Below the pieces are notes generated by a model that was not told the origin of the DNA, did no database searches, and worked only from the letters and a program-made list of their open reading frames with translations. This document shows positions 3,232-10,892 of a stretch of 11,188 nucleotides of DNA, one piece after another; positions within the stretch are counted from its first letter, which is position 1; the number at the start of each line of letters is the position of its first letter. Source of the stretch: a virus; the IMG/VR virus record IMGVR_UViG_3300018019_000494. The stretch is one strand, 5' to 3'. The position numbers were made by a program, and so were the translations under genes.

Positions 3232-3452
3232 TCTGGCTGGCCTACGTCGGTTTCGTGCTCGTCTTCCTGTCCTACGCGAGGATTCCCAAGAGTCCCCGCT
3301 CCGGGTGGGCATACGGGGCGTTGGGGAACGTCCTTTACACTATTGCATTCCTGCCCTACCGTAGGGTAGAGTTGCTTTTAGCGCCCGTCGCATTCGCGGC
3401 GCTGTCCGCGTGGAACCTATGGCGAGAACTAAGGAAGACATCCTCGAACTGA
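3228..3452 (+). CDS. Small membrane protein with two predicted TM helices, GTG start
   Basis: GTGA overlap with the upstream stop. Hydrophobic stretches LAYVGFVLVFLSY and LLLAPVAFAALSAW. Confidence 0.55.
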   Translation: MIWLAYVGFVLVFLSYARIPKSPRSGWAYGALGNVLYTIAFLPYRRVELLLAPVAFAALSAWNLWRELRKTSSN

Positions 3453-4261
3453 TCCGGCACACGCCGTTCATGTGGCCCGACTCCGTCATCCACGTATTTA
3501 TATCCGGCTCCGCGATGCACGGCGCGACCGGAAGCCAGCCGACCGACACCGACATCTCCGGGGTGTACATTCAGCCCGTGGAGACGGTGCTGGGCATCCC
3601 GCAGAAGAATGAGGATGGCAAATGGTTCGATCCGGACACCCAGGTGTGGAGCAGCGCTGGCGACCACAGCAAGAACACCGCCGACGACATCGACGTGAAC
3701 CTGTACTCGCTCCGCAAGTGGGCGGGCATGGCGGCGAGTGGGAACACCACCGCCTTGGAGTTTCTGTTTGTGAAGAACATGGTCTGTGAGACTCCTTTGG
3801 AATATACCGTTTGGGATAAGTACATCCTGCCGAACACGCAGCACTTTATCTCCAAGCGTGCGGGCTTCCACTTCGCCGCCTTCGCGGAGGCGATGAAGCT
3901 GCGGCTGAGCGGCGGGAGCACGGGGAGGCACGGGCAAAGACCGGAGCTTGAGACCGAGTTCGGGTACGACGTCAAGGGGGCCATGCACATGCTGCGCATG
4001 CTGGGCGAGGGCATCGAGCTTATGACCACCGGCGCGATCACCCTGCCTTGCCCGGAAGCGGCGTTCCTGAAGGCCGTTCGGAACGGCGAGCTTTCATGGG
4101 CGCAGGTCGATGGGATCGCCGACGCGAGGTTCAGCATCCTTGGCGAGTGCCGCGAGAAGTCTTTCCTGCCTGACGAGATCGACCGGGCGGCGATCAGCAG
4201 GATCATCACCGACGCGCAGATCGAATTCTGGGGCTTGGTAGGCAGCAGGAGGGCGATATGA
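3410..4261 (+). CDS. Nucleotidyltransferase-fold protein of the Pol-beta superfamily. Possibly RlaP-like, that is, of the RNA-ligase-associated type.
   Basis: hG[GS]x(9-13)DxD motif in VFISGSAMHGATGSQPTDTDISGVYI, a later acidic IDVNL strand, then a helical C-terminal domain. The start is GTG 3410; the alternative ATG 3419 is equally plausible. Confidence 0.65.
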   Translation: MEPMARTKEDILELIRHTPFMWPDSVIHVFISGSAMHGATGSQPTDTDISGVYIQPVETVLGIPQKNEDGKWFDPDTQVWSSAGDHSKNTADDIDVNLYSLRKWAGMAASGNTTALEFLFVKNMVCETPLEYTVWDKYILPNTQHFISKRAGFHFAAFAEAMKLRLSGGSTGRHGQRPELETEFGYDVKGAMHMLRMLGEGIELMTTGAITLPCPEAAFLKAVRNGELSWAQVDGIADARFSILGECREKSFLPDEIDRAAISRIITDAQIEFWGLVGSRRAI

Positions 4262-7191: not shown

Positions 7192-7407
7192 ATGTCCACG
7201 ACGGCATCCATCCGAGGTTTCGATGAAATGGTGAAAAACGTGGATGCCACAGCGGTTTGCGGGATCGAGGGCGATAAGGTCGTCCTCCGCCTCGAATCGG
7301 AGACCCCGTCCGCCGACAACGCCCGCCTCAACTTCACGGCGGAATCGGCCGAGAGGCTGGCCGGCGACTTGCTCATGTGGGCGGACAGGCTGAGGAAAAT
7401 CCGGTGA
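7192..7407 (+). CDS. Hypothetical protein, 71 aa
   Basis: ORF with high GC3. The RBS is weak. An alternative in-frame ATG is at 7228. Confidence 0.55.
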   Translation: MSTTASIRGFDEMVKNVDATAVCGIEGDKVVLRLESETPSADNARLNFTAESAERLAGDLLMWADRLRKIR

Positions 7408-7559
7408 CGGCTGAGGAGAGGAAGCAGGTCCGCGACGAGACCATCGACGAGCTTTGCGGCTGGCTGGCGTCCTGCATCGAGCACGTGGATCACGGCAGCG
7501 AGGTCTACAAGGCGTGCAACGCCATGGTCGCCGCGATGAGAGGAAAAAAGACAGTATGA
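7404..7559 (+). CDS. Hypothetical protein, 51 aa, GTG start
   Basis: GTGA overlap with the upstream stop. The alternative ATG 7377 would overlap the upstream gene by 31 nt. Confidence 0.45.
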   Translation: MTAEERKQVRDETIDELCGWLASCIEHVDHGSEVYKACNAMVAAMRGKKTV

Positions 7560-8123: not shown

Positions 8124-8152
8124 TTGACAGTTTTCCAGTTTTTCGGTATCTT
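8124..8152 (+). promoter_or_regulatory. Sigma70-type promoter: -35 TTGACA (8124-8129), 17-bp spacer, -10 TATCTT (8147-8152)
   Basis: AT-rich intergenic island in a GC-rich genome. Perfect -35 hexamer with canonical spacing. Predicted TSS near 8159. Confidence 0.5.
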
Positions 8153-8332: not shown

Positions 8333-8408
8333 AGGGGAGTAAGATAACCGGCAGTCGGTCGGTCTCCAAAACCGTACAGTGGCGGTTCAAATCCGTCCTC
8401 CCCTGCCA
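8333..8408 (+). tRNA. tRNA-Trp(CCA), 76 nt, CCA encoded
   Basis: Manual cloverleaf: acceptor AGGGGAG/CTCCCCT, U8, A14, G18G19, U33, anticodon CCA, T-loop TTCAAAT, G53-C61. The D-stem first pair and the 27-43 pair are weak (A/G, U/U). Confidence 0.7.
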
Positions 8409-8442
8409 AAGTTTTTGAAAGGAAAGTAGTTACAAGTTCTAT

Positions 8443-8519
8443 GGTGGCGGTCGTCTAGCGGCTAAGACACCTGACTGTGGATCAGGATAGCATGGGTCCG
8501 AATCCCATTCGCCACCCCA
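8443..8519 (+). tRNA. tRNA-His(GUG) with encoded G-1 and C73
   Basis: Acceptor GTGGCGG/TCGCCAC, G-1 at 8443 pairing with C73, perfect D and anticodon stems, loop CTGTGGA. The T-loop TCCGAAT has C at position 55. Confidence 0.8.
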
Positions 8520-8538
8520 ATTTTGAGGAGAGACGTTG

Positions 8539-8614
8539 GTCCGTGTAGCTCAGAAGGAAGAGCACCACGCTCCGAACGTGGAGGTCGCGAGTCCGAGTCT
8601 CGCCATGGACACCA
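8539..8614 (+). tRNA. tRNA-Arg(CCG)
   Basis: Acceptor GTCCGTG/CATGGAC, D-stem GCTC/GAGC, anticodon loop CTCCGAA, T-arm GCGAG-TCCGAGT-CTCGC (C55). Confidence 0.8.
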
Positions 8615-8618
8615 GTTT

Positions 8619-8825
8619 ATGATGACGTTCACGATCAGCGACGAGAAGGCGGCGCAGTACAAGGCGTGGAGCGAAGAGCACCGGAAGACGTGCGGGGCGC
8701 GACCGGATATGAGCATGGCCCTGTACAGCTTCGTGTTCACGCCGAACGGTCTTGGGGACGGCATATCGGTCAAATGCCCCTGCGGCGAGAGGGTATTCCT
8801 CGACGCCGGGGACGAGGATTTATAG
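8619..8825 (+). CDS. Small Cys-containing protein, 68 aa (MMTFTISDEKAAQYKAWSEEHRKTCG...CPCGERVF), located between tRNA genes
   Basis: Very high GC3. It starts 5 nt after tRNA-Arg(CCG) and its stop abuts the next tRNA (8826). The listed longer ORF 8523.. runs through two tRNAs and is rejected. Confidence 0.6.
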   Translation: MMTFTISDEKAAQYKAWSEEHRKTCGARPDMSMALYSFVFTPNGLGDGISVKCPCGERVFLDAGDEDL

Positions 8826-8903
8826 GCGCGTGTAGCTCAGCCGGAATAGAGCGCTATTCTGCGAAGATAGAGGTCGGCGGTCCGAGTCCGCCCATGCGCA
8901 CCA
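8826..8903 (+). tRNA. tRNA-Arg(GCG)
   Basis: Acceptor GCGCGTG/CATGCGC, D-arm GCTC-AGCCGGAATA-GAGC, anticodon loop CTGCGAA (stem with one G-U pair), T-arm GGCGG-TCCGAGT-CCGCC (C55). Confidence 0.75.
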
Positions 8904-8911
8904 AGTTTTTT

Positions 8912-8989
8912 GCCGGGCTAGCCATTGGACATGGCGGCACGCCTTCGAAACGTGCACGTTTGCGGGTTCGAATCCCGCGCCCGGTTCCA
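8912..8989 (+). tRNA. tRNA-Arg(UCG)-like with a non-canonical anticodon arm (9-nt loop CCTTCGAAA, or a 7-nt loop closed by a C/A mismatch)
   Basis: Acceptor GCCGGGC/GCCCGGT (G1-U72), T-arm GCGGG-TTCGAAT-CCCGC, anticodon stem GCACG/CGTGC. The anticodon assignment TCG is inferred from U33 placement. Followed by a T8 run. Confidence 0.55.
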
Positions 8990-8999
8990 GGTTTTTTTT

Positions 9000-9077
9000 G
9001 CGCCCGTAGCTCAGCGGAATAAGAGCATTGGTCTACGAAACCAAGGGTCGCGTGTTCGAATCACGCCGGGCGCACCA
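9000..9077 (+). tRNA. tRNA-Arg(ACG)
   Basis: Acceptor GCGCCCG/CGGGCGC, D-arm GCTC-AGCGGAATAA-GAGC, anticodon loop CTACGAA with a perfect stem, T-arm GCGTG-TTCGAAT-CACGC. Confidence 0.85.
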
Positions 9078-9081
9078 ACAT

Positions 9082-9168
9082 TGAGGTGTAGGGGAATCGG
9101 TAGACCCACCTGGCTGTTACCCAGGAGCCGAAAGGCACTTGCAGGTTCGAAGCCTGCCGCCTCAGCCA
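9082..9168 (+). tRNA. Atypical 87-nt class-II-like tRNA: Leu-like D-arm (GGG-GAATCGGTAGA-CCC), long variable arm, but anticodon GUU (Asn), U1-A72 and G73
   Basis: Acceptor TGAGGTG/CGCCTCA, perfect anticodon stem CCTGG/CCAGG with loop CTGTTAC, variable arm AGCCGAAAGGCACTT, T-arm GCAGG-TTCGAAG-CCTGC, CCA encoded. Confidence 0.55.
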
Positions 9169-9186
9169 GTTTAGAGGGAGGATTCA

Positions 9187-9518
<332 letters not shown>

Positions 9519-9523
9519 AGTTT

Positions 9524-9598
9524 GGGTCTGTAATTCAGCGGCTAGAAGCCCTCGCTCTTAACGAGGTAACGAGAGTTCGAGTCTCTCCAGACCCACCA
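9524..9598 (+). tRNA. tRNA-Lys(CUU), copy 1
   Basis: Acceptor GGGTCTG/CAGACCC, A73, anticodon stem CCTCG/CGAGG, loop CTCTTAA, T-arm GAGAG-TTCGAGT-CTCTC. The D-stem has one A/G mismatch. Confidence 0.75.
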
Positions 9599-9618
9599 GG
9601 CATCTGATAGAATAGGGC

Positions 9619-10020
9619 ATGAACAAGAAAGCTCAAGGCACTCGGTCAGTCGGTGCGGTGATGAGCCACTTCATCAAAGCAGGCAAAATCGTCTTGATGC
9701 CGATTGGAGACAATGAGCGATACGATTTCGTCATTGATGAGGATGGGCGGTTTCGGCGTATTCAAGTCAAAACGGGCAAGGTCAAGAACGGAGCGATAGA
9801 GTTTAGTACCGCCAGCACTAATCTTGAAAACGGTAAGTGGGTGAGACACGGTTATAGGGGACAGATTGACGATTTCGCAGTTTACTGCCCTAAACTCGAC
9901 AAGGTTTACCTTGTGCCTATAGACGAAGCAGGTGGTCAGACACACTGTTCTTTGCGGCTTGAGCCAGCGAAGAACGGTCAACAAAAGGGCATTAGGCTGG
10001 CTGAGCAGTACGAGGTTTAG
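9619..10020 (+). CDS. PD-(D/E)xK-fold nuclease-like protein (Hjc/YraN-UPF0102-like), 133 aa, with foreign composition
   Basis: GC is about 50% and GC3 about 55%, versus about 85% GC3 in the flanking genes. The pattern G..G...FIKAGKIVL...DFVID-x7-RIQVKTGK resembles the core of YraN/Hjc-like nucleases. Its stop codon shares its last base with tRNA-Lys copy 2. Confidence 0.6.
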   Translation: MNKKAQGTRSVGAVMSHFIKAGKIVLMPIGDNERYDFVIDEDGRFRRIQVKTGKVKNGAIEFSTASTNLENGKWVRHGYRGQIDDFAVYCPKLDKVYLVPIDEAGGQTHCSLRLEPAKNGQQKGIRLAEQYEV

Positions 10021-10095
10021 GGCTACTAACTCAACTGGTAGAGTAGCAGACTCTTAATCTGCGAGTTCGGGGTTCGAGTCCCCGGTGGCCCACCA
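10020..10095 (+). tRNA. tRNA-Lys(CUU), copy 2, with a different sequence from copy 1
   Basis: Acceptor GGGCTAC/GTGGCCC, D-arm ACTC-AACTGGTA-GAGT, anticodon stem GCAGA/TCTGC, loop CTCTTAA, T-arm CGGGG-TTCGAGT-CCCCG, A73. Confidence 0.8.
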
Positions 10096-10134
10096 AGTTT
10101 CCGGGTATTAGAACTCTTAGGATAGGAGGTCAGC

Positions 10135-10680
10135 ATGCCCGACGTACTGGTTCTCGACATGAACTACCGCCCTGTCGGCTTCAAGTCCTGGCAGGACGCG
10201 ATCACGAACGTGTGGAAGGAGCGGGCCATCGTCGTCAAGGAGGACGAGTCCGGCCTGAAGCTCCACTCCCCGTCGTTCGAGGTCGGGATGCCGAGGGTGA
10301 TCCGCGTGCGCAACGCCTGGGTGAAGCGGCGCAAGACATCCGTGCCGTTCTCGCGGCGCAACCTGTACGTCCGCGACGGCGGCGAGTGCCAGTACTGCGG
10401 TAGGCACCTCAAGCTGGAGGAGTACACCCTCGATCACGTGATCCCGCGTTCGCAGGGCGGCGTGAGTTCGTGGGTCAACATGGTCCTCGCCTGCATGCGC
10501 TGCAACAAGCACAAGGCGGGCCGGACGCCGCAGCAGGCAGGGATGCCCCTCCTGCACAAGCCCGTCGTCCCGAAGGTGGACGACCCGAAGTACAACTTCA
10601 AGCTCCACATCCGCAAGATGCGGCCCGAGTGGAAAGAATGGGAGAATTTCCTTTACTGGAATATCGAGCTTGACGAGTAG
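10135..10680 (+). CDS. HNH endonuclease, 181 aa
   Basis: TAGGAGGT RBS. Motifs CQYCG...LDHVIPRSQGG...N...CMRCNKHK (the HNH zinc-finger core). Confidence 0.8.
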   Translation: MPDVLVLDMNYRPVGFKSWQDAITNVWKERAIVVKEDESGLKLHSPSFEVGMPRVIRVRNAWVKRRKTSVPFSRRNLYVRDGGECQYCGRHLKLEEYTLDHVIPRSQGGVSSWVNMVLACMRCNKHKAGRTPQQAGMPLLHKPVVPKVDDPKYNFKLHIRKMRPEWKEWENFLYWNIELDE

Positions 10681-10694
10681 ATCAAGCGACAAGC

Positions 10695-10718
10695 CCCGGA
10701 GGAGCAACCCTCCTCCGG
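10695..10718 (+). terminator. Strong GC hairpin (CCCGGAGGAG-CAAC-CTCCTCCGGG) without a good U-tract; a possible terminator or processing/stability element
   Basis: Perfect 10-bp stem, 14 nt after the HNH stop and 9 nt before tRNA-Arg(CCU). Confidence 0.35.
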
Positions 10719-10727
10719 GCGAAATTT

Positions 10728-10805
10728 GGCCCCGTAGCTCAGCGGAATAAGAGCGACGCACTCCTAACGCGTAGGTCACTGGTCCGAATCCAGTCGGGGT
10801 CACCA
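10728..10805 (+). tRNA. tRNA-Arg(CCU)
   Basis: Acceptor GGCCCCG/CGGGGTC, D-arm identical to that of Arg(ACG), anticodon loop CTCCTAA with an A31/C39 mismatch, T-arm ACTGG-TCCGAAT-CCAGT (C55). Confidence 0.7.
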
Positions 10806-10818
10806 ATTTTTGAGTTGT

Positions 10819-10892
10819 TGCCTCCTCGTCCAACGGTAGGACACGGGTCTCTGGAACCCGGTATCGCGGTTCGAATCCTCGGGAGGCAGCCA
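10819..10892 (+). tRNA. tRNA-Gln(CUG), U1-A72, G73
   Basis: Acceptor TGCCTCC/GGAGGCA, D-arm GTCC-AACGGTA-GGAC, anticodon stem CGGGT/ACCCG, loop CTCTGGA, T-loop TTCGAAT (the T-stem has one C/U mismatch). Confidence 0.75.

Follow-up and report, generated by a model that had tools for sequence, protein, structure and literature searches.

The 11,188-nt stretch of viral DNA analysed here (IMG/VR record IMGVR_UViG_3300018019_000494), the whole of which is called the window, contains at positions 9082-9168 (+) a tRNA gene that combines the asparagine anticodon GUU with the long variable arm of a class II tRNA. Judged from its sequence and from that of its relatives, the encoded RNA is probably a working asparagine decoder on a class II chassis. 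The gene belongs to a widespread phage tRNA family, called type A here, of at least 34 distinct genes, and thus an earlier annotation of the window made from its letters alone (the sequence-only reading), which presented it as a one-phage curiosity, was too narrow. Textbooks and reviews restrict class II tRNAs to Leu, Ser, bacterial Tyr and Sec (PMC4033280, PMC7609411), and one such review (PMC4033280 or PMC7609411) calls bacterial tRNA genes "surprisingly uniform". The rule that limits the long extra arm to these four isotypes is broken by the type-A family of phages. Phages commonly have class II tRNA-Asn, and there are smaller sets for Lys, Gln, His and Trp; the Asn form is carried by cultured phages of Pseudomonas, Brevundimonas, Klebsiella and Erwinia as well as by a phage that grows on E. 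coli K-12. Neither class II tRNA-Asn nor phage tRNAs that combine a class I isotype with a long arm were found described in the full-text-searchable literature, which does not cover most subscription journals, so that an earlier description is possible.

ARAGORN assigned 9082-9168 (+) to tRNA-Asn(gtt), with a length of 87 nt and the anticodon at position 35. In the Rfam scan the tRNA family RF00005 was the only match, without a second family, at 51.1 bits (gathering score 29, E=8e-9 in the window); the alignment places the insertion in the variable region, and U8, G18G19, T54-Psi55-C56, A58 and C61 are conserved. The minimum free energy (MFE) fold is a cloverleaf with a 7-bp acceptor stem, a 3-bp D-stem, a 5-bp anticodon stem, a 3-bp variable hairpin and a T-arm. 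In gene order the sequence reads TGAGGTG TA GGG GAATCGGTAGA CCC A CCTGG CTGTTAC CCAGG AGCCGAAAGGCACTT GCAGG TTCGAAG CCTGC CGCCTCA G CCA, with U8 A9 between acceptor stem and D-stem, the anticodon loop CUGUUAC, and helices that contain no mismatch in sequence and MFE fold. Its elements are the following:

9082-9168 (+): class II-type tRNA(GUU), 84 nt plus encoded CCA (ARAGORN, RF00005, MFE cloverleaf, family covariation)
9082-9088 (+): 5' acceptor strand TGAGGTG, pairing with CGCCTCA at 9158-9164 (U1-A72, G2-C71, A3-U70, U6-G67); from sequence, with two-sided changes in 6/7 family pairs and U1-A72 in 34/34
9091-9107 (+): Leu-type D-arm GGG / GAATCGGTAGA / CCC with a 3-bp stem, A15 and G18 G19; from sequence and fold, nearest to tRNA-Leu D-arms
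9109-9125 (+): anticodon arm CCTGG CTGTTAC CCAGG, anticodon GTT at 9116-9118, followed by A37 and C38; from sequence and ARAGORN, 5/5 stem pairs covary in the family
9126-9140 (+): variable arm AGCCGAAAGGCACTT, 15 nt, with a 3-bp stem GCC/GGC, a GAAA tetraloop and four unpaired 3' bases ending in the invariant U48; from sequence and fold, two-sided changes in 3/3 stem pairs
9141-9157 (+): T-arm GCAGG TTCGAAG CCTGC; from sequence and fold, family cells 100% paired, with G53, T54, T55, C56, A58 and C61 invariant
9165-9168 (+): discriminator G73 and encoded CCA; from sequence, G73 in 34/34 and CCA encoded in 25/34 family members

The sequence-only reading had drawn the same molecule, i.e., an 87-nt cloverleaf with a 3-bp D-stem, a Leu-type D-loop, a 15-nt GAAA-capped arm and a T-arm, and with the anticodon GUU in the loop CTGTTAC, U1-A72 and G73, and sequence, MFE fold, RF00005 and ARAGORN all agree with it. 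The canonical tRNA-Asn(GUU) that it had placed downstream lies at 9444-9518, 276 nt past the gene end. In contrast to the structural class of tRNA-Asn, which has a 4-bp D-stem and a variable loop of 4-5 nt, the tRNA at 9082-9168 has a 3-bp D-stem and a 15-nt arm. The folding-energy z-score is only -1.64, so that energy by itself is not significant, and therefore the case for a tRNA at this position rests on the covariance model and on comparative data. At least seven further contigs, assembled from samples of JGI, ENA and Logan, contain this DNA with 99.97-100% identity, and thus the window sequence is no assembly artefact; six of these assemblies show reproducibility and add no evolutionary depth.

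The family was retrieved from IMG/VR with a pattern that combined a degenerate Leu-type D-loop end, a GUU anticodon loop, a long spacer and a T-loop. The pattern matched 112 stretches, which ARAGORN and a strict cloverleaf parse reduced to 55 long GTT tRNAs and then to 34 distinct type-A genes, the window's gene counted, with type A defined by U1, a 3-bp D-stem with GGAAxTGGTAGAC and a variable arm of 12-17 nt. Archaeal and giant-virus matches to the pattern were set aside; most of them fail the strict parse and are probably intron-containing tRNAs. For the covariation analysis a MAFFT alignment was used that had not been fitted to structure, and the cloverleaf was written from the window's sequence. 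In this alignment 96.2% of the cells are in standard pairs, and two-sided changes occur at 19/23 pairs. The covariation score is 0.80, compared with 0.19 after shuffling (0/500 reach the observed value) and 0.09-0.15 when the partners were slid. Every helix is supported by covariation, including the variable-arm stem with all three pairs, and the hairpin of the variable arm is capped by a GNRA loop in 29/34 genes. U8, G18, G19, U48, G53, T54, T55, C56, A58, C61, A72 and G73 are invariant; the anticodon GUU is invariant as well, but was part of the search pattern. Position 38 is A in 30/34 and C in 4/34 genes. The nearest independent relatives, L064 and L092, differ from the window's gene by compensatory changes in all helices. 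Together with the family covariation, this leads to the rejection of a degenerate gene for the window's copy.

Type-A genes come from phage contigs, from cultured phages of Pseudomonas and Brevundimonas (Bajun, Kikimora and Gurke) and from tRNA arrays in bacterial genome assemblies. The gene order in Pseudomonas phage Milchi, i.e., canonical Asn gene, HNH gene and long-arm Asn gene, resembles that of the window. In the Pseudomonas phiPsa374 group the copy is annotated as tRNA-Asn with the note "tRNA-Pseudo-GTT". For phage phiPsa374 itself (L117) ARAGORN found 20 tRNAs in a stretch for which GenBank annotates 11, and an odd 77-nt tRNA(GTT) at 3912-3988 lies directly upstream of the long-arm copy at 3995-4081. 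Another locus, L061, has two long-arm tRNA(GUU) genes with different D-arm types only 8 nt apart, at 7314-7398 and 7406-7493. In the bacterial assemblies most of the listed copies lie within dense arrays of 12-22 tRNAs per 8 kb, the copy of Bradyrhizobium sp. Ai1a-2 is identical to one in an IMG/VR viral region, and none of the bacterial-genome matches listed is a cell's housekeeping tRNA-Asn of type A. The only one of these matches that does not look array- or phage-borne is a lone Leu-like class II tRNA with GUU, G73 and G1-C72 at 3153-3239 of L195, a 3.9-kb contig of an Acetobacteraceae metagenome-assembled genome that is too short to judge.

Which amino acid the tRNA would carry can be judged from the identity elements. 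Bacterial Asn identity consists of the three anticodon bases and G73 and can be moved to a different tRNA body, as reviewed by Giege and Eriani (PMC9976931). According to the same review, Leu identity resides in A73 and tertiary elements, without a need for the arm, G73 is an antideterminant for the leucyl- and tyrosyl-tRNA synthetases (LeuRS and TyrRS), and bacterial tRNA-Ser is characterized by G1-C72, G2-C71 and reliance on the long arm, with C2-G71 acting against the seryl-tRNA synthetase (SerRS). The amidotransferase that converts Asp-tRNA-Asn needs U1-A72 (PMC9976931, PMC2811023). Type A was compared with the class II tRNAs from the same phage loci (arm and stem lengths are means):

Phage tRNA-Leu: A73 in 28/28, pair 1-72 G-C in 19/28, pair 2-71 C-G in 19/28, arm 13.6 nt, stem 3.7 bp
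Phage tRNA-Tyr: A73 in 21/21, pair 1-72 G-C in 20/21, pair 2-71 G-C in 14/21, arm 13.4 nt, stem 2.9 bp
Phage tRNA-Ser: G73 in 18/29, pair 1-72 G-C in 26/29, pair 2-71 G-C in 27/29, arm 18.5 nt, stem 5.6 bp
Type A: G73 in 34/34, pair 1-72 U-A in 34/34, pair 2-71 C-G in 20/34, arm 13.7 nt, stem 2.9 bp

The window's tRNA has the Asn set complete, with GTT at 9116-9118, G73 at 9165 and T9082-A9164 as U1-A72. Of the Leu features it has the D-arm and the tertiary core (A15-U48, G18G19) of a body homologous to tRNA-Leu, but the discriminator is G73 (A73 in 0/34 of the family) and the anticodon is GUU, not NAG or NAA. With tRNA-Ser it has G73 in common; G2-C71 is present in the window's copy and in 10/34 of the family, G1-C72 is found in none of the 34, and the arm, with a 3-bp stem and four unpaired 3' bases, is not of the Ser type, for which the phage mean is 1.1 unpaired bases. 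The Tyr features, A73 and GUA, are replaced by G73 and GUU. At the level of sequence, type A is therefore in accord with tRNA-Asn on every count and fails the tests for Leu, Tyr and Ser.

The body appears to have a different history from the identity elements. The type-A D-arm is closest to tRNA-Leu D-arms, and Ralstonia phage RSP15 encodes a genuine tRNA-Leu(CAA), with G1-C72 and A73. Type-A genes, L031 for instance, agree base for base with this tRNA-Leu in the D-arm tgggggaattggtagaccca, which is also the commonest D-arm within type A, and in the anticodon stem cctga/tcagg, and they have almost the same variable arm (cgctgaaaggcgt in RSP15). The common D-arm, anticodon stem and variable arm indicate that type A descends from a phage tRNA-Leu in which the anticodon, the discriminator and the first pair were switched to Asn. 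The description of a Leu-like class II body with Asn identity elements, given earlier from the sequence, is thus borne out and supplemented by a concrete homolog. An origin from tRNA-Tyr by a change from GUA to GUU was suggested by Tyr-annotated BLAST neighbours; the D-arms of the Tyr genes differ, the match to the RSP15 tRNA-Leu D-arm is exact, and therefore the Leu origin is preferred. The existence of such a family accounts for the inconsistent annotation: GenBank lists one member as a pseudogene, and among the look-alikes that other phages have on this body there are genuine genes for tRNA-Leu or tRNA-Tyr.

In most arrays type A has no partner. A short Asn gene accompanies it in 3/33 loci, and in 2/17 of the loci with at least ten tRNAs, so that type A is the only Asn tRNA in 15/17 large arrays. 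It is likewise the only one among the approximately 26 tRNAs of Brevundimonas phage Bajun. The layout of the window, with two Asn genes, is a minority case among type-A loci. The previous view of the gene as a second Asn decoder therefore applies to the window, which has a canonical Asn gene as well, and does not hold for the family, in which type A is usually the phage's sole Asn tRNA.

In the mechanism that we propose, a phage tRNA-Leu gene was converted by switching its anticodon, discriminator and first pair to those of Asn, and the product, which most probably carries asparagine, would read AAC and AAU, the codons of this amino acid. Following the identity rules for anticodon and G73 (PMC9976931), asparaginyl-tRNA synthetase (AsnRS) would charge it directly, and G73 would exclude LeuRS and TyrRS. 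In hosts without AsnRS an aspartyl-tRNA synthetase of the non-discriminating kind (ND-AspRS) would attach Asp, which GatCAB, with its need for U1-A72, would convert to Asn. The distribution of long-arm forms has a corresponding pattern: phages of Pseudomonas and Brevundimonas and the Bradyrhizobium viral region have forms with U1-A72, and phages of Erwinia, Klebsiella, Raoultella and E. coli have forms with G1-C72. Enterobacterales have AsnRS. P. aeruginosa makes Asn-tRNA via ND-AspRS and GatCAB (PMC2330236). The host pattern fits the use of the host's normal Asn route, although it is only correlative. This raises the question of whether AsnRS, ND-AspRS and GatCAB tolerate a long arm, and bears on how these enzymes read tRNA shape.

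Several points weigh against an asparagine decoder. Profiles built from phage tRNAs to imitate the isotype models of tRNAscan-SE gave low and mixed nhmmer scores for the window's gene and singled out no isotype clearly (Tyr 18.0, Asn 14.3, Ser 12.2 and Leu 7.6 bits; all at most 10.4 bits with the anticodon masked), in keeping with its mixed ancestry and with the differing labels in GenBank. The side of the tRNA that bears the D-loop and the variable loop is approached or inspected by class IIb synthetases and GatCAB, and a supernumerary D-loop base between G19 and the 3' strand of the D-stem is a feature by which GatCAB rejects tRNA-Asp and tRNA-Glu (PMC2811023). The window's tRNA has one extra base in this region in comparison with the window's canonical tRNA-Asn, and thus its acceptance is not to be assumed. 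A long arm together with G73 is read elsewhere as seryl identity (PMC5389517), and the window's copy has G2-C71. U1 was a selection filter for type A, so that only the counts of A72 and G73 are unbiased. The loci are partial contig stretches, and a canonical Asn gene could sit outside some of them. Lastly, the copy of the phiPsa374 group has an extra T, which would bulge from the acceptor stem, and is annotated as a pseudogene.

A comparison with known systems shows where type A stands. Canonical bacterial and phage tRNA-Asn(GUU) resembles it in the loop CUGUUA, A37, G73, U1-A72, the encoded CCA and the position in phage arrays, and presumably in codons and amino acid, but has a 4-bp D-stem and a 5-nt variable loop, in contrast to the Leu-type 3-bp D-stem, the longer D-loop and the variable hairpin of 12-17 nt in type A. 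Phage and bacterial tRNA-Leu, such as that of RSP15, has a homologous body with an A15-U48 type core and a GAAA-capped arm, but A73, G1-C72 and an NAA or NAG anticodon instead of G73, U1-A72 and GUU. The only well-known precedent for breaking the rule is provided by the nev-tRNAs of nematodes, which combine a long arm with class I anticodons (Gly or Ile). These eukaryotic tRNAs keep Leu identity, are charged with Leu, mistranslate and are weakly expressed (Hamashima 2012; PMC4033280). In type A, by contrast, the acceptor end was switched to the isotype of the anticodon, faithful decoding is expected, and the genes reside in phages. The allo-tRNAs, and with them the 8/4 tRNA-Ser and tRNA-His from bacteria and phages, are likewise irregular long-arm tRNAs with G73 that occur in phage tRNA clusters (PMC5389517). 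The allo-tRNAs have 8/4 or 9/3 acceptor/T branches, Sec-like D-arms, seryl or alanyl identity and assorted anticodons (Mukai 2017; PMC5389517), whereas type A is a regular 7/5 tRNA with the Asn identity set.

Type A is accompanied by other long-arm tRNAs of apparently independent origin. In types B and C the body is that of an ordinary tRNA-Asn, and a hairpin has been inserted into its variable loop. Phages of Erwinia, Raoultella and Klebsiella carry type B, which is marked by G1-C72 and of which the E. coli K-12 phage nepoznato has a variant; type C combines U1-A72 with a 4-bp D-stem of the Asn type. Outside type A, too, most hairpins of long-arm Asn genes are capped by GNRA tetraloops. Hairpin insertion into ordinary Asn bodies may mean that the arm itself is selected. 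Control scans with the same pattern and parse, but with other anticodon loops, compare as follows in distinct long-arm cloverleaves: 38 for Asn, 14 for Lys-UUU, 4 for Gln, 2 for His, 1 for Asp and none for Thr-UGU. Some of these carry the acceptor ends of their own isotypes (U1-A72/G73 for Gln, an apparent G-1 with C73 for His), and the long-arm tRNA-Trp genes found in two Asn loci have A1-U72/G73. The Leu-like D-arm chassis was observed with GUG (His) in L371 and L373 and with UUG (Gln) in L404, L406, L429, L451 and L116; the latter have U1-A72, and G73 in 4/5 cases. His and Gln anticodons on the same chassis show that identity switching is not confined to Asn. Among phages, class I tRNAs in a class II version are thus a wider phenomenon, with Asn as the commonest isotype for this D-loop type, and the natural, repeated identity switching on a class II chassis offers ready-made tRNA scaffolds for synthetic biology.

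Some further long-arm genes deserve mention. The tRNA of phage nepoznato (Escherichia phage, MN850571; L378, 2977-3062) is an 86-nt tRNA-Asn with G1-C72, G73 and the variable hairpin GTTC-GAAA-GAAC, and the stem-loop of its anticodon, cggactgttaatccg, agrees with that of a tRNA-Asn-like sequence on a gammaproteobacterial chromosome (L175). The phage grows on E. coli K-12 MG1655 and is the most convenient system for experiments on long-arm tRNA-Asn. A tRNA-Lys(UUU) family (L247, L260, L265, L266, L302-L305, L320, L325 and L326) has an ordinary Lys-type D-arm, A73 and a variable hairpin of 17-21 nt, and by these features looks like a class II tRNA-Lys; its IMG/VR phage contigs are about 20-520 kb long, several of them 200-520 kb. 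L335 (IMGVR_UViG_3300044960_000921) has at about 220-280 a Leu-like class II body with the anticodon GUC (Asp). In contrast to the type-A Asn family with G73 it keeps the Leu discriminator A73, which makes it a candidate for a Leu-charged reader of Asp codons.

What the long arm does is a separate question. One possibility, to which we give somewhat less than even weight, is that the extra arm and the foreign D-loop make the tRNA a poor substrate for host factors that recognize the ordinary tRNA-Asn body, e.g., defence nucleases. One example is the nuclease AriB of the PARIS system, which cuts tRNA-Lys, tRNA-Thr and tRNA-Asn at 40|41 and makes base-specific D-loop contacts at 16-17, and from which phage T5 escapes by substituted tRNAs (PMC12409363). 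The T5 variants that evade AriB or PrrC-type nucleases are copies of the cleaved tRNAs, and the AriB targets include tRNA-Asn(GUU) (PMC12409363, PMC10264068). By analogy, type A could serve the same purpose, although the T5 variants carry point substitutions near the cleavage site and in the D-loop, whereas the change in type A is architectural and consists of an added arm and an exchanged D-arm. The two regions contacted by AriB lie on either side of the point from which a class II arm projects, and in type A the D-loop is replaced as well, so that an escape is structurally plausible. In the window's tRNA, positions 36-41 are UACCCA and the D-loop is replaced; the sequence quoted for tRNA-Asn of E. 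coli is UAAUC|C. An RNA-repair-type nucleotidyltransferase (RlaP) is encoded in the same window. The main argument that the arm was selected is that types B and C gained their hairpins independently.

Two observations weigh against the involvement of nucleases: 14/34 type-A members keep U36-A-A-U-C (UAAUC) beside the AriB site, and the other long-arm tRNAs found with it in the same arrays belong to a mixture of isotypes (Trp, Thr, Pro, Lys, Met, Gly and Gln) instead of specifically to Lys and Thr. The prediction specific to PARIS, that long-arm Asn travels with long-arm Lys and Thr, was not borne out. We therefore regard the variable arm as a counter-defence device only tentatively. The same reserve applies to its generalization, a possible but doubtful scenario in which phages repeatedly turned class I tRNAs into the class II format while keeping their identity, most frequently for Asn and also for Lys, Gln, His, Trp and Thr, either by switching a tRNA-Leu chassis or by inserting a GNRA-capped hairpin, and in which the arm acts as a shield or handle against host tRNA-directed defences such as PARIS-type Toprim nucleases and colicin-like or other tRNases. 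It provides a testable hypothesis for phage escape from tRNA-cleaving immunity and, if true, would mean that counter-defence has a new, architectural mode, which differs from the escape by point mutation already known.

Alternatively, the Asn tRNA may be functional and its arm without a role of its own: a duplicated tRNA-Leu was converted by a short path, AsnRS ignores the body, and the arm was inherited and kept folded. As a general explanation this is conceivable, although we would not favour it. For type A alone, neutral remoulding and a defence role have about the same likelihood, since few changes lead from Leu to Asn (the three bases of the anticodon, A73 to G, and the first pair). The direct homology to phage tRNA-Leu speaks for it, as do the identity rules, by which anticodon and G73 suffice for Asn, and Leu depends on A73 without a need for the arm (PMC9976931). 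The Gln and His anticodons with matching acceptor ends on the same chassis are also expected if switches are easy. However, Leu remoulding cannot explain types B and C, with their hairpins in ordinary Asn bodies, which point to selection, and Asn is strongly over-represented among the long-arm class I isotypes in the matched scans.

The next alternative concerns the amino acid. SerRS, attracted by the long arm and G73, or LeuRS, attracted by the Leu-type core, would put Ser or Leu at Asn codons, with ambiguous decoding or recoding as a result. Both enzymes ignore the anticodon; a long arm with G73 is regarded as seryl identity in allo-tRNAs, and the change of A73 to G alone makes human tRNA-Leu a serine acceptor (PMC5389517, PMC9976931). 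In addition, G2-C71 is present in the window's copy, the tertiary elements read by LeuRS (A15-U48, G18G19) are conserved in type A, and the nev-tRNAs charged with Leu are a precedent (PMC4033280). Yet A73 is absent from all 34 genes, and G73 is listed as acting against LeuRS and TyrRS; G1-C72, a pair with absolute conservation in most bacterial tRNA-Ser, is equally absent, 20/34 carry the anti-SerRS pair C2-G71, and the arm, with means of 2.9 bp and 2.9 unpaired 3' bases, is shorter than that of phage tRNA-Ser (5.6 bp and 1.1 bases). The invariant U1-A72 would be of no use to SerRS or LeuRS, and type A is usually the phage's only Asn tRNA. Asn residues within the HNH-domain match of the window's HNH endonuclease are at least compatible with normal decoding. 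Mis-acylation by LeuRS or SerRS, one of three readings proposed from the sequence, is thus improbable. Another of these, a structurally disguised Asn decoder, is the best supported; the motive suggested with it, resistance to a host anticodon nuclease, is hypothetical.

It is also very unlikely that ND-AspRS aspartylates the tRNA and GatCAB then rejects its D-loop and arm, so that Asp is delivered to Asn codons or the pathway enzymes are sequestered. C38, an AspRS identity element of E. coli tRNA-Asp, is present in the window's tRNA and its closest relatives, and the tRNA has the additional base between G19 and D-stem mentioned above. GatCAB reads the shape of the D-loop, rejects a supernumerary base there, and its tail domain adjoins the variable loop (PMC2811023, PMC2330236). 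On the other hand, the positive GatCAB determinant U1-A72 is invariant, which is hard to explain if GatCAB is not used, and type A is the only Asn tRNA in most arrays. Furthermore, EF-Tu binds Asp-tRNA-Asn poorly. We give just as little credence to a non-translational RNA, i.e., a decoy that blocks a host tRNA-targeting nuclease or another tRNA-binding factor. The canonical tRNA-Asn in the window would leave room for it, but acceptor end, encoded CCA, T-loop, anticodon loop and the Asn identity set are retained over wide divergence, and a sole Asn tRNA, as in most arrays, would be an odd choice for a pure decoy. A decaying pseudogene or functionless tRNA-gene chimera, the last of the three earlier readings, is effectively refuted: the phiPsa374-group copy with its extra acceptor-stem T and the modest MFE z-score are outweighed by the mismatch-free helices of the window's copy, by compensatory covariation across 34 distinct genes, by invariant identity and tertiary bases, by the sole-Asn role in most arrays, and by the spread of the gene over unrelated phages.

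The gene lies within a tRNA array of a phage-like window, which has about 60% G+C and convincing genes exclusively on the + strand:

8124-8152 (+): promoter-like site TTGACA-17-TATCTT upstream of the first tRNA; weak evidence (motif scan, 2 sites compared with 1.1 expected)
8333-10892 (+): tRNA array of 12 genes, both Asn genes included (ARAGORN)
9444-9518 (+): canonical class I tRNA-Asn(GUU), 75 nt, U1-A72, G73 (ARAGORN; Rfam 68.1 bits)

A 13th array gene, Lys-UUU, was seen just past the window end in contigs L120 and L379, and no + strand terminator was found inside the array. When the array was compared with INPHARED by megablast, nothing but the canonical Asn gene matched, and that over short lengths. 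In IMG/VR a 33-mer of the long-arm tRNA had no exact match, and the subgroup pattern was found in JGI metagenomes only in the same phage (L120) and in L064. The array includes two tRNA-Lys(CUU) genes, at 9524 and 10020, and five tRNA-Arg genes at 8539-9077 and 10728-10805 (+), with the anticodons CCG, GCG, UCG and ACG in succession, i.e., all four CGN anticodons, plus CCU. A tRNA-Arg with the anticodon GCG is unusual among bacteria.

Between the two Asn genes lies an open reading frame for 88 amino acids (9187-9453, +), which is alanine-rich, starts with TTG, is preceded by the Shine-Dalgarno-like sequence GAGGGAGG at 9174-9181 and overlaps the start of the canonical gene by 10 nt; it has no match in Pfam or PHROG. 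In phage Milchi the equivalent gap is occupied by an HNH endonuclease gene. The array of the window is interrupted by genes for a PD-(D/E)XK endonuclease (PF11645) and an HNH endonuclease, at 9619-10020 and 10135-10680 (+), which may be homing endonucleases able to move tRNA genes between phages.

Upstream of the array, a 399-aa protein belongs to the phage family phrog_10079. The cultured phages closest in this protein (about 45% identity) infect Bordetella, Burkholderia, Pseudomonas and Caulobacter. Contigs related through this protein are distant and have no comparable tRNA arrays. A 330-aa protein (2004-2996, +) has a major vault protein (MVP) shoulder domain (PF11978, 1.3e-25), which is unexpected in a phage, and has no match in PHROG. 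The RlaP-type protein has 283 aa (3410-4261, +) and matches the Pfam RNA repair pathway pol-beta nucleotidyltransferase RlaP (PF10127, 7.6e-19) and phrog_388 (1e-42), which suggests that the phage invests in RNA or tRNA repair or modification. In L379, a longer contig of the same phage, a protein of the ADP-ribosylglycohydrolase family (PF03747) is encoded at 13297-14509, about 5 kb downstream of the tRNA array.

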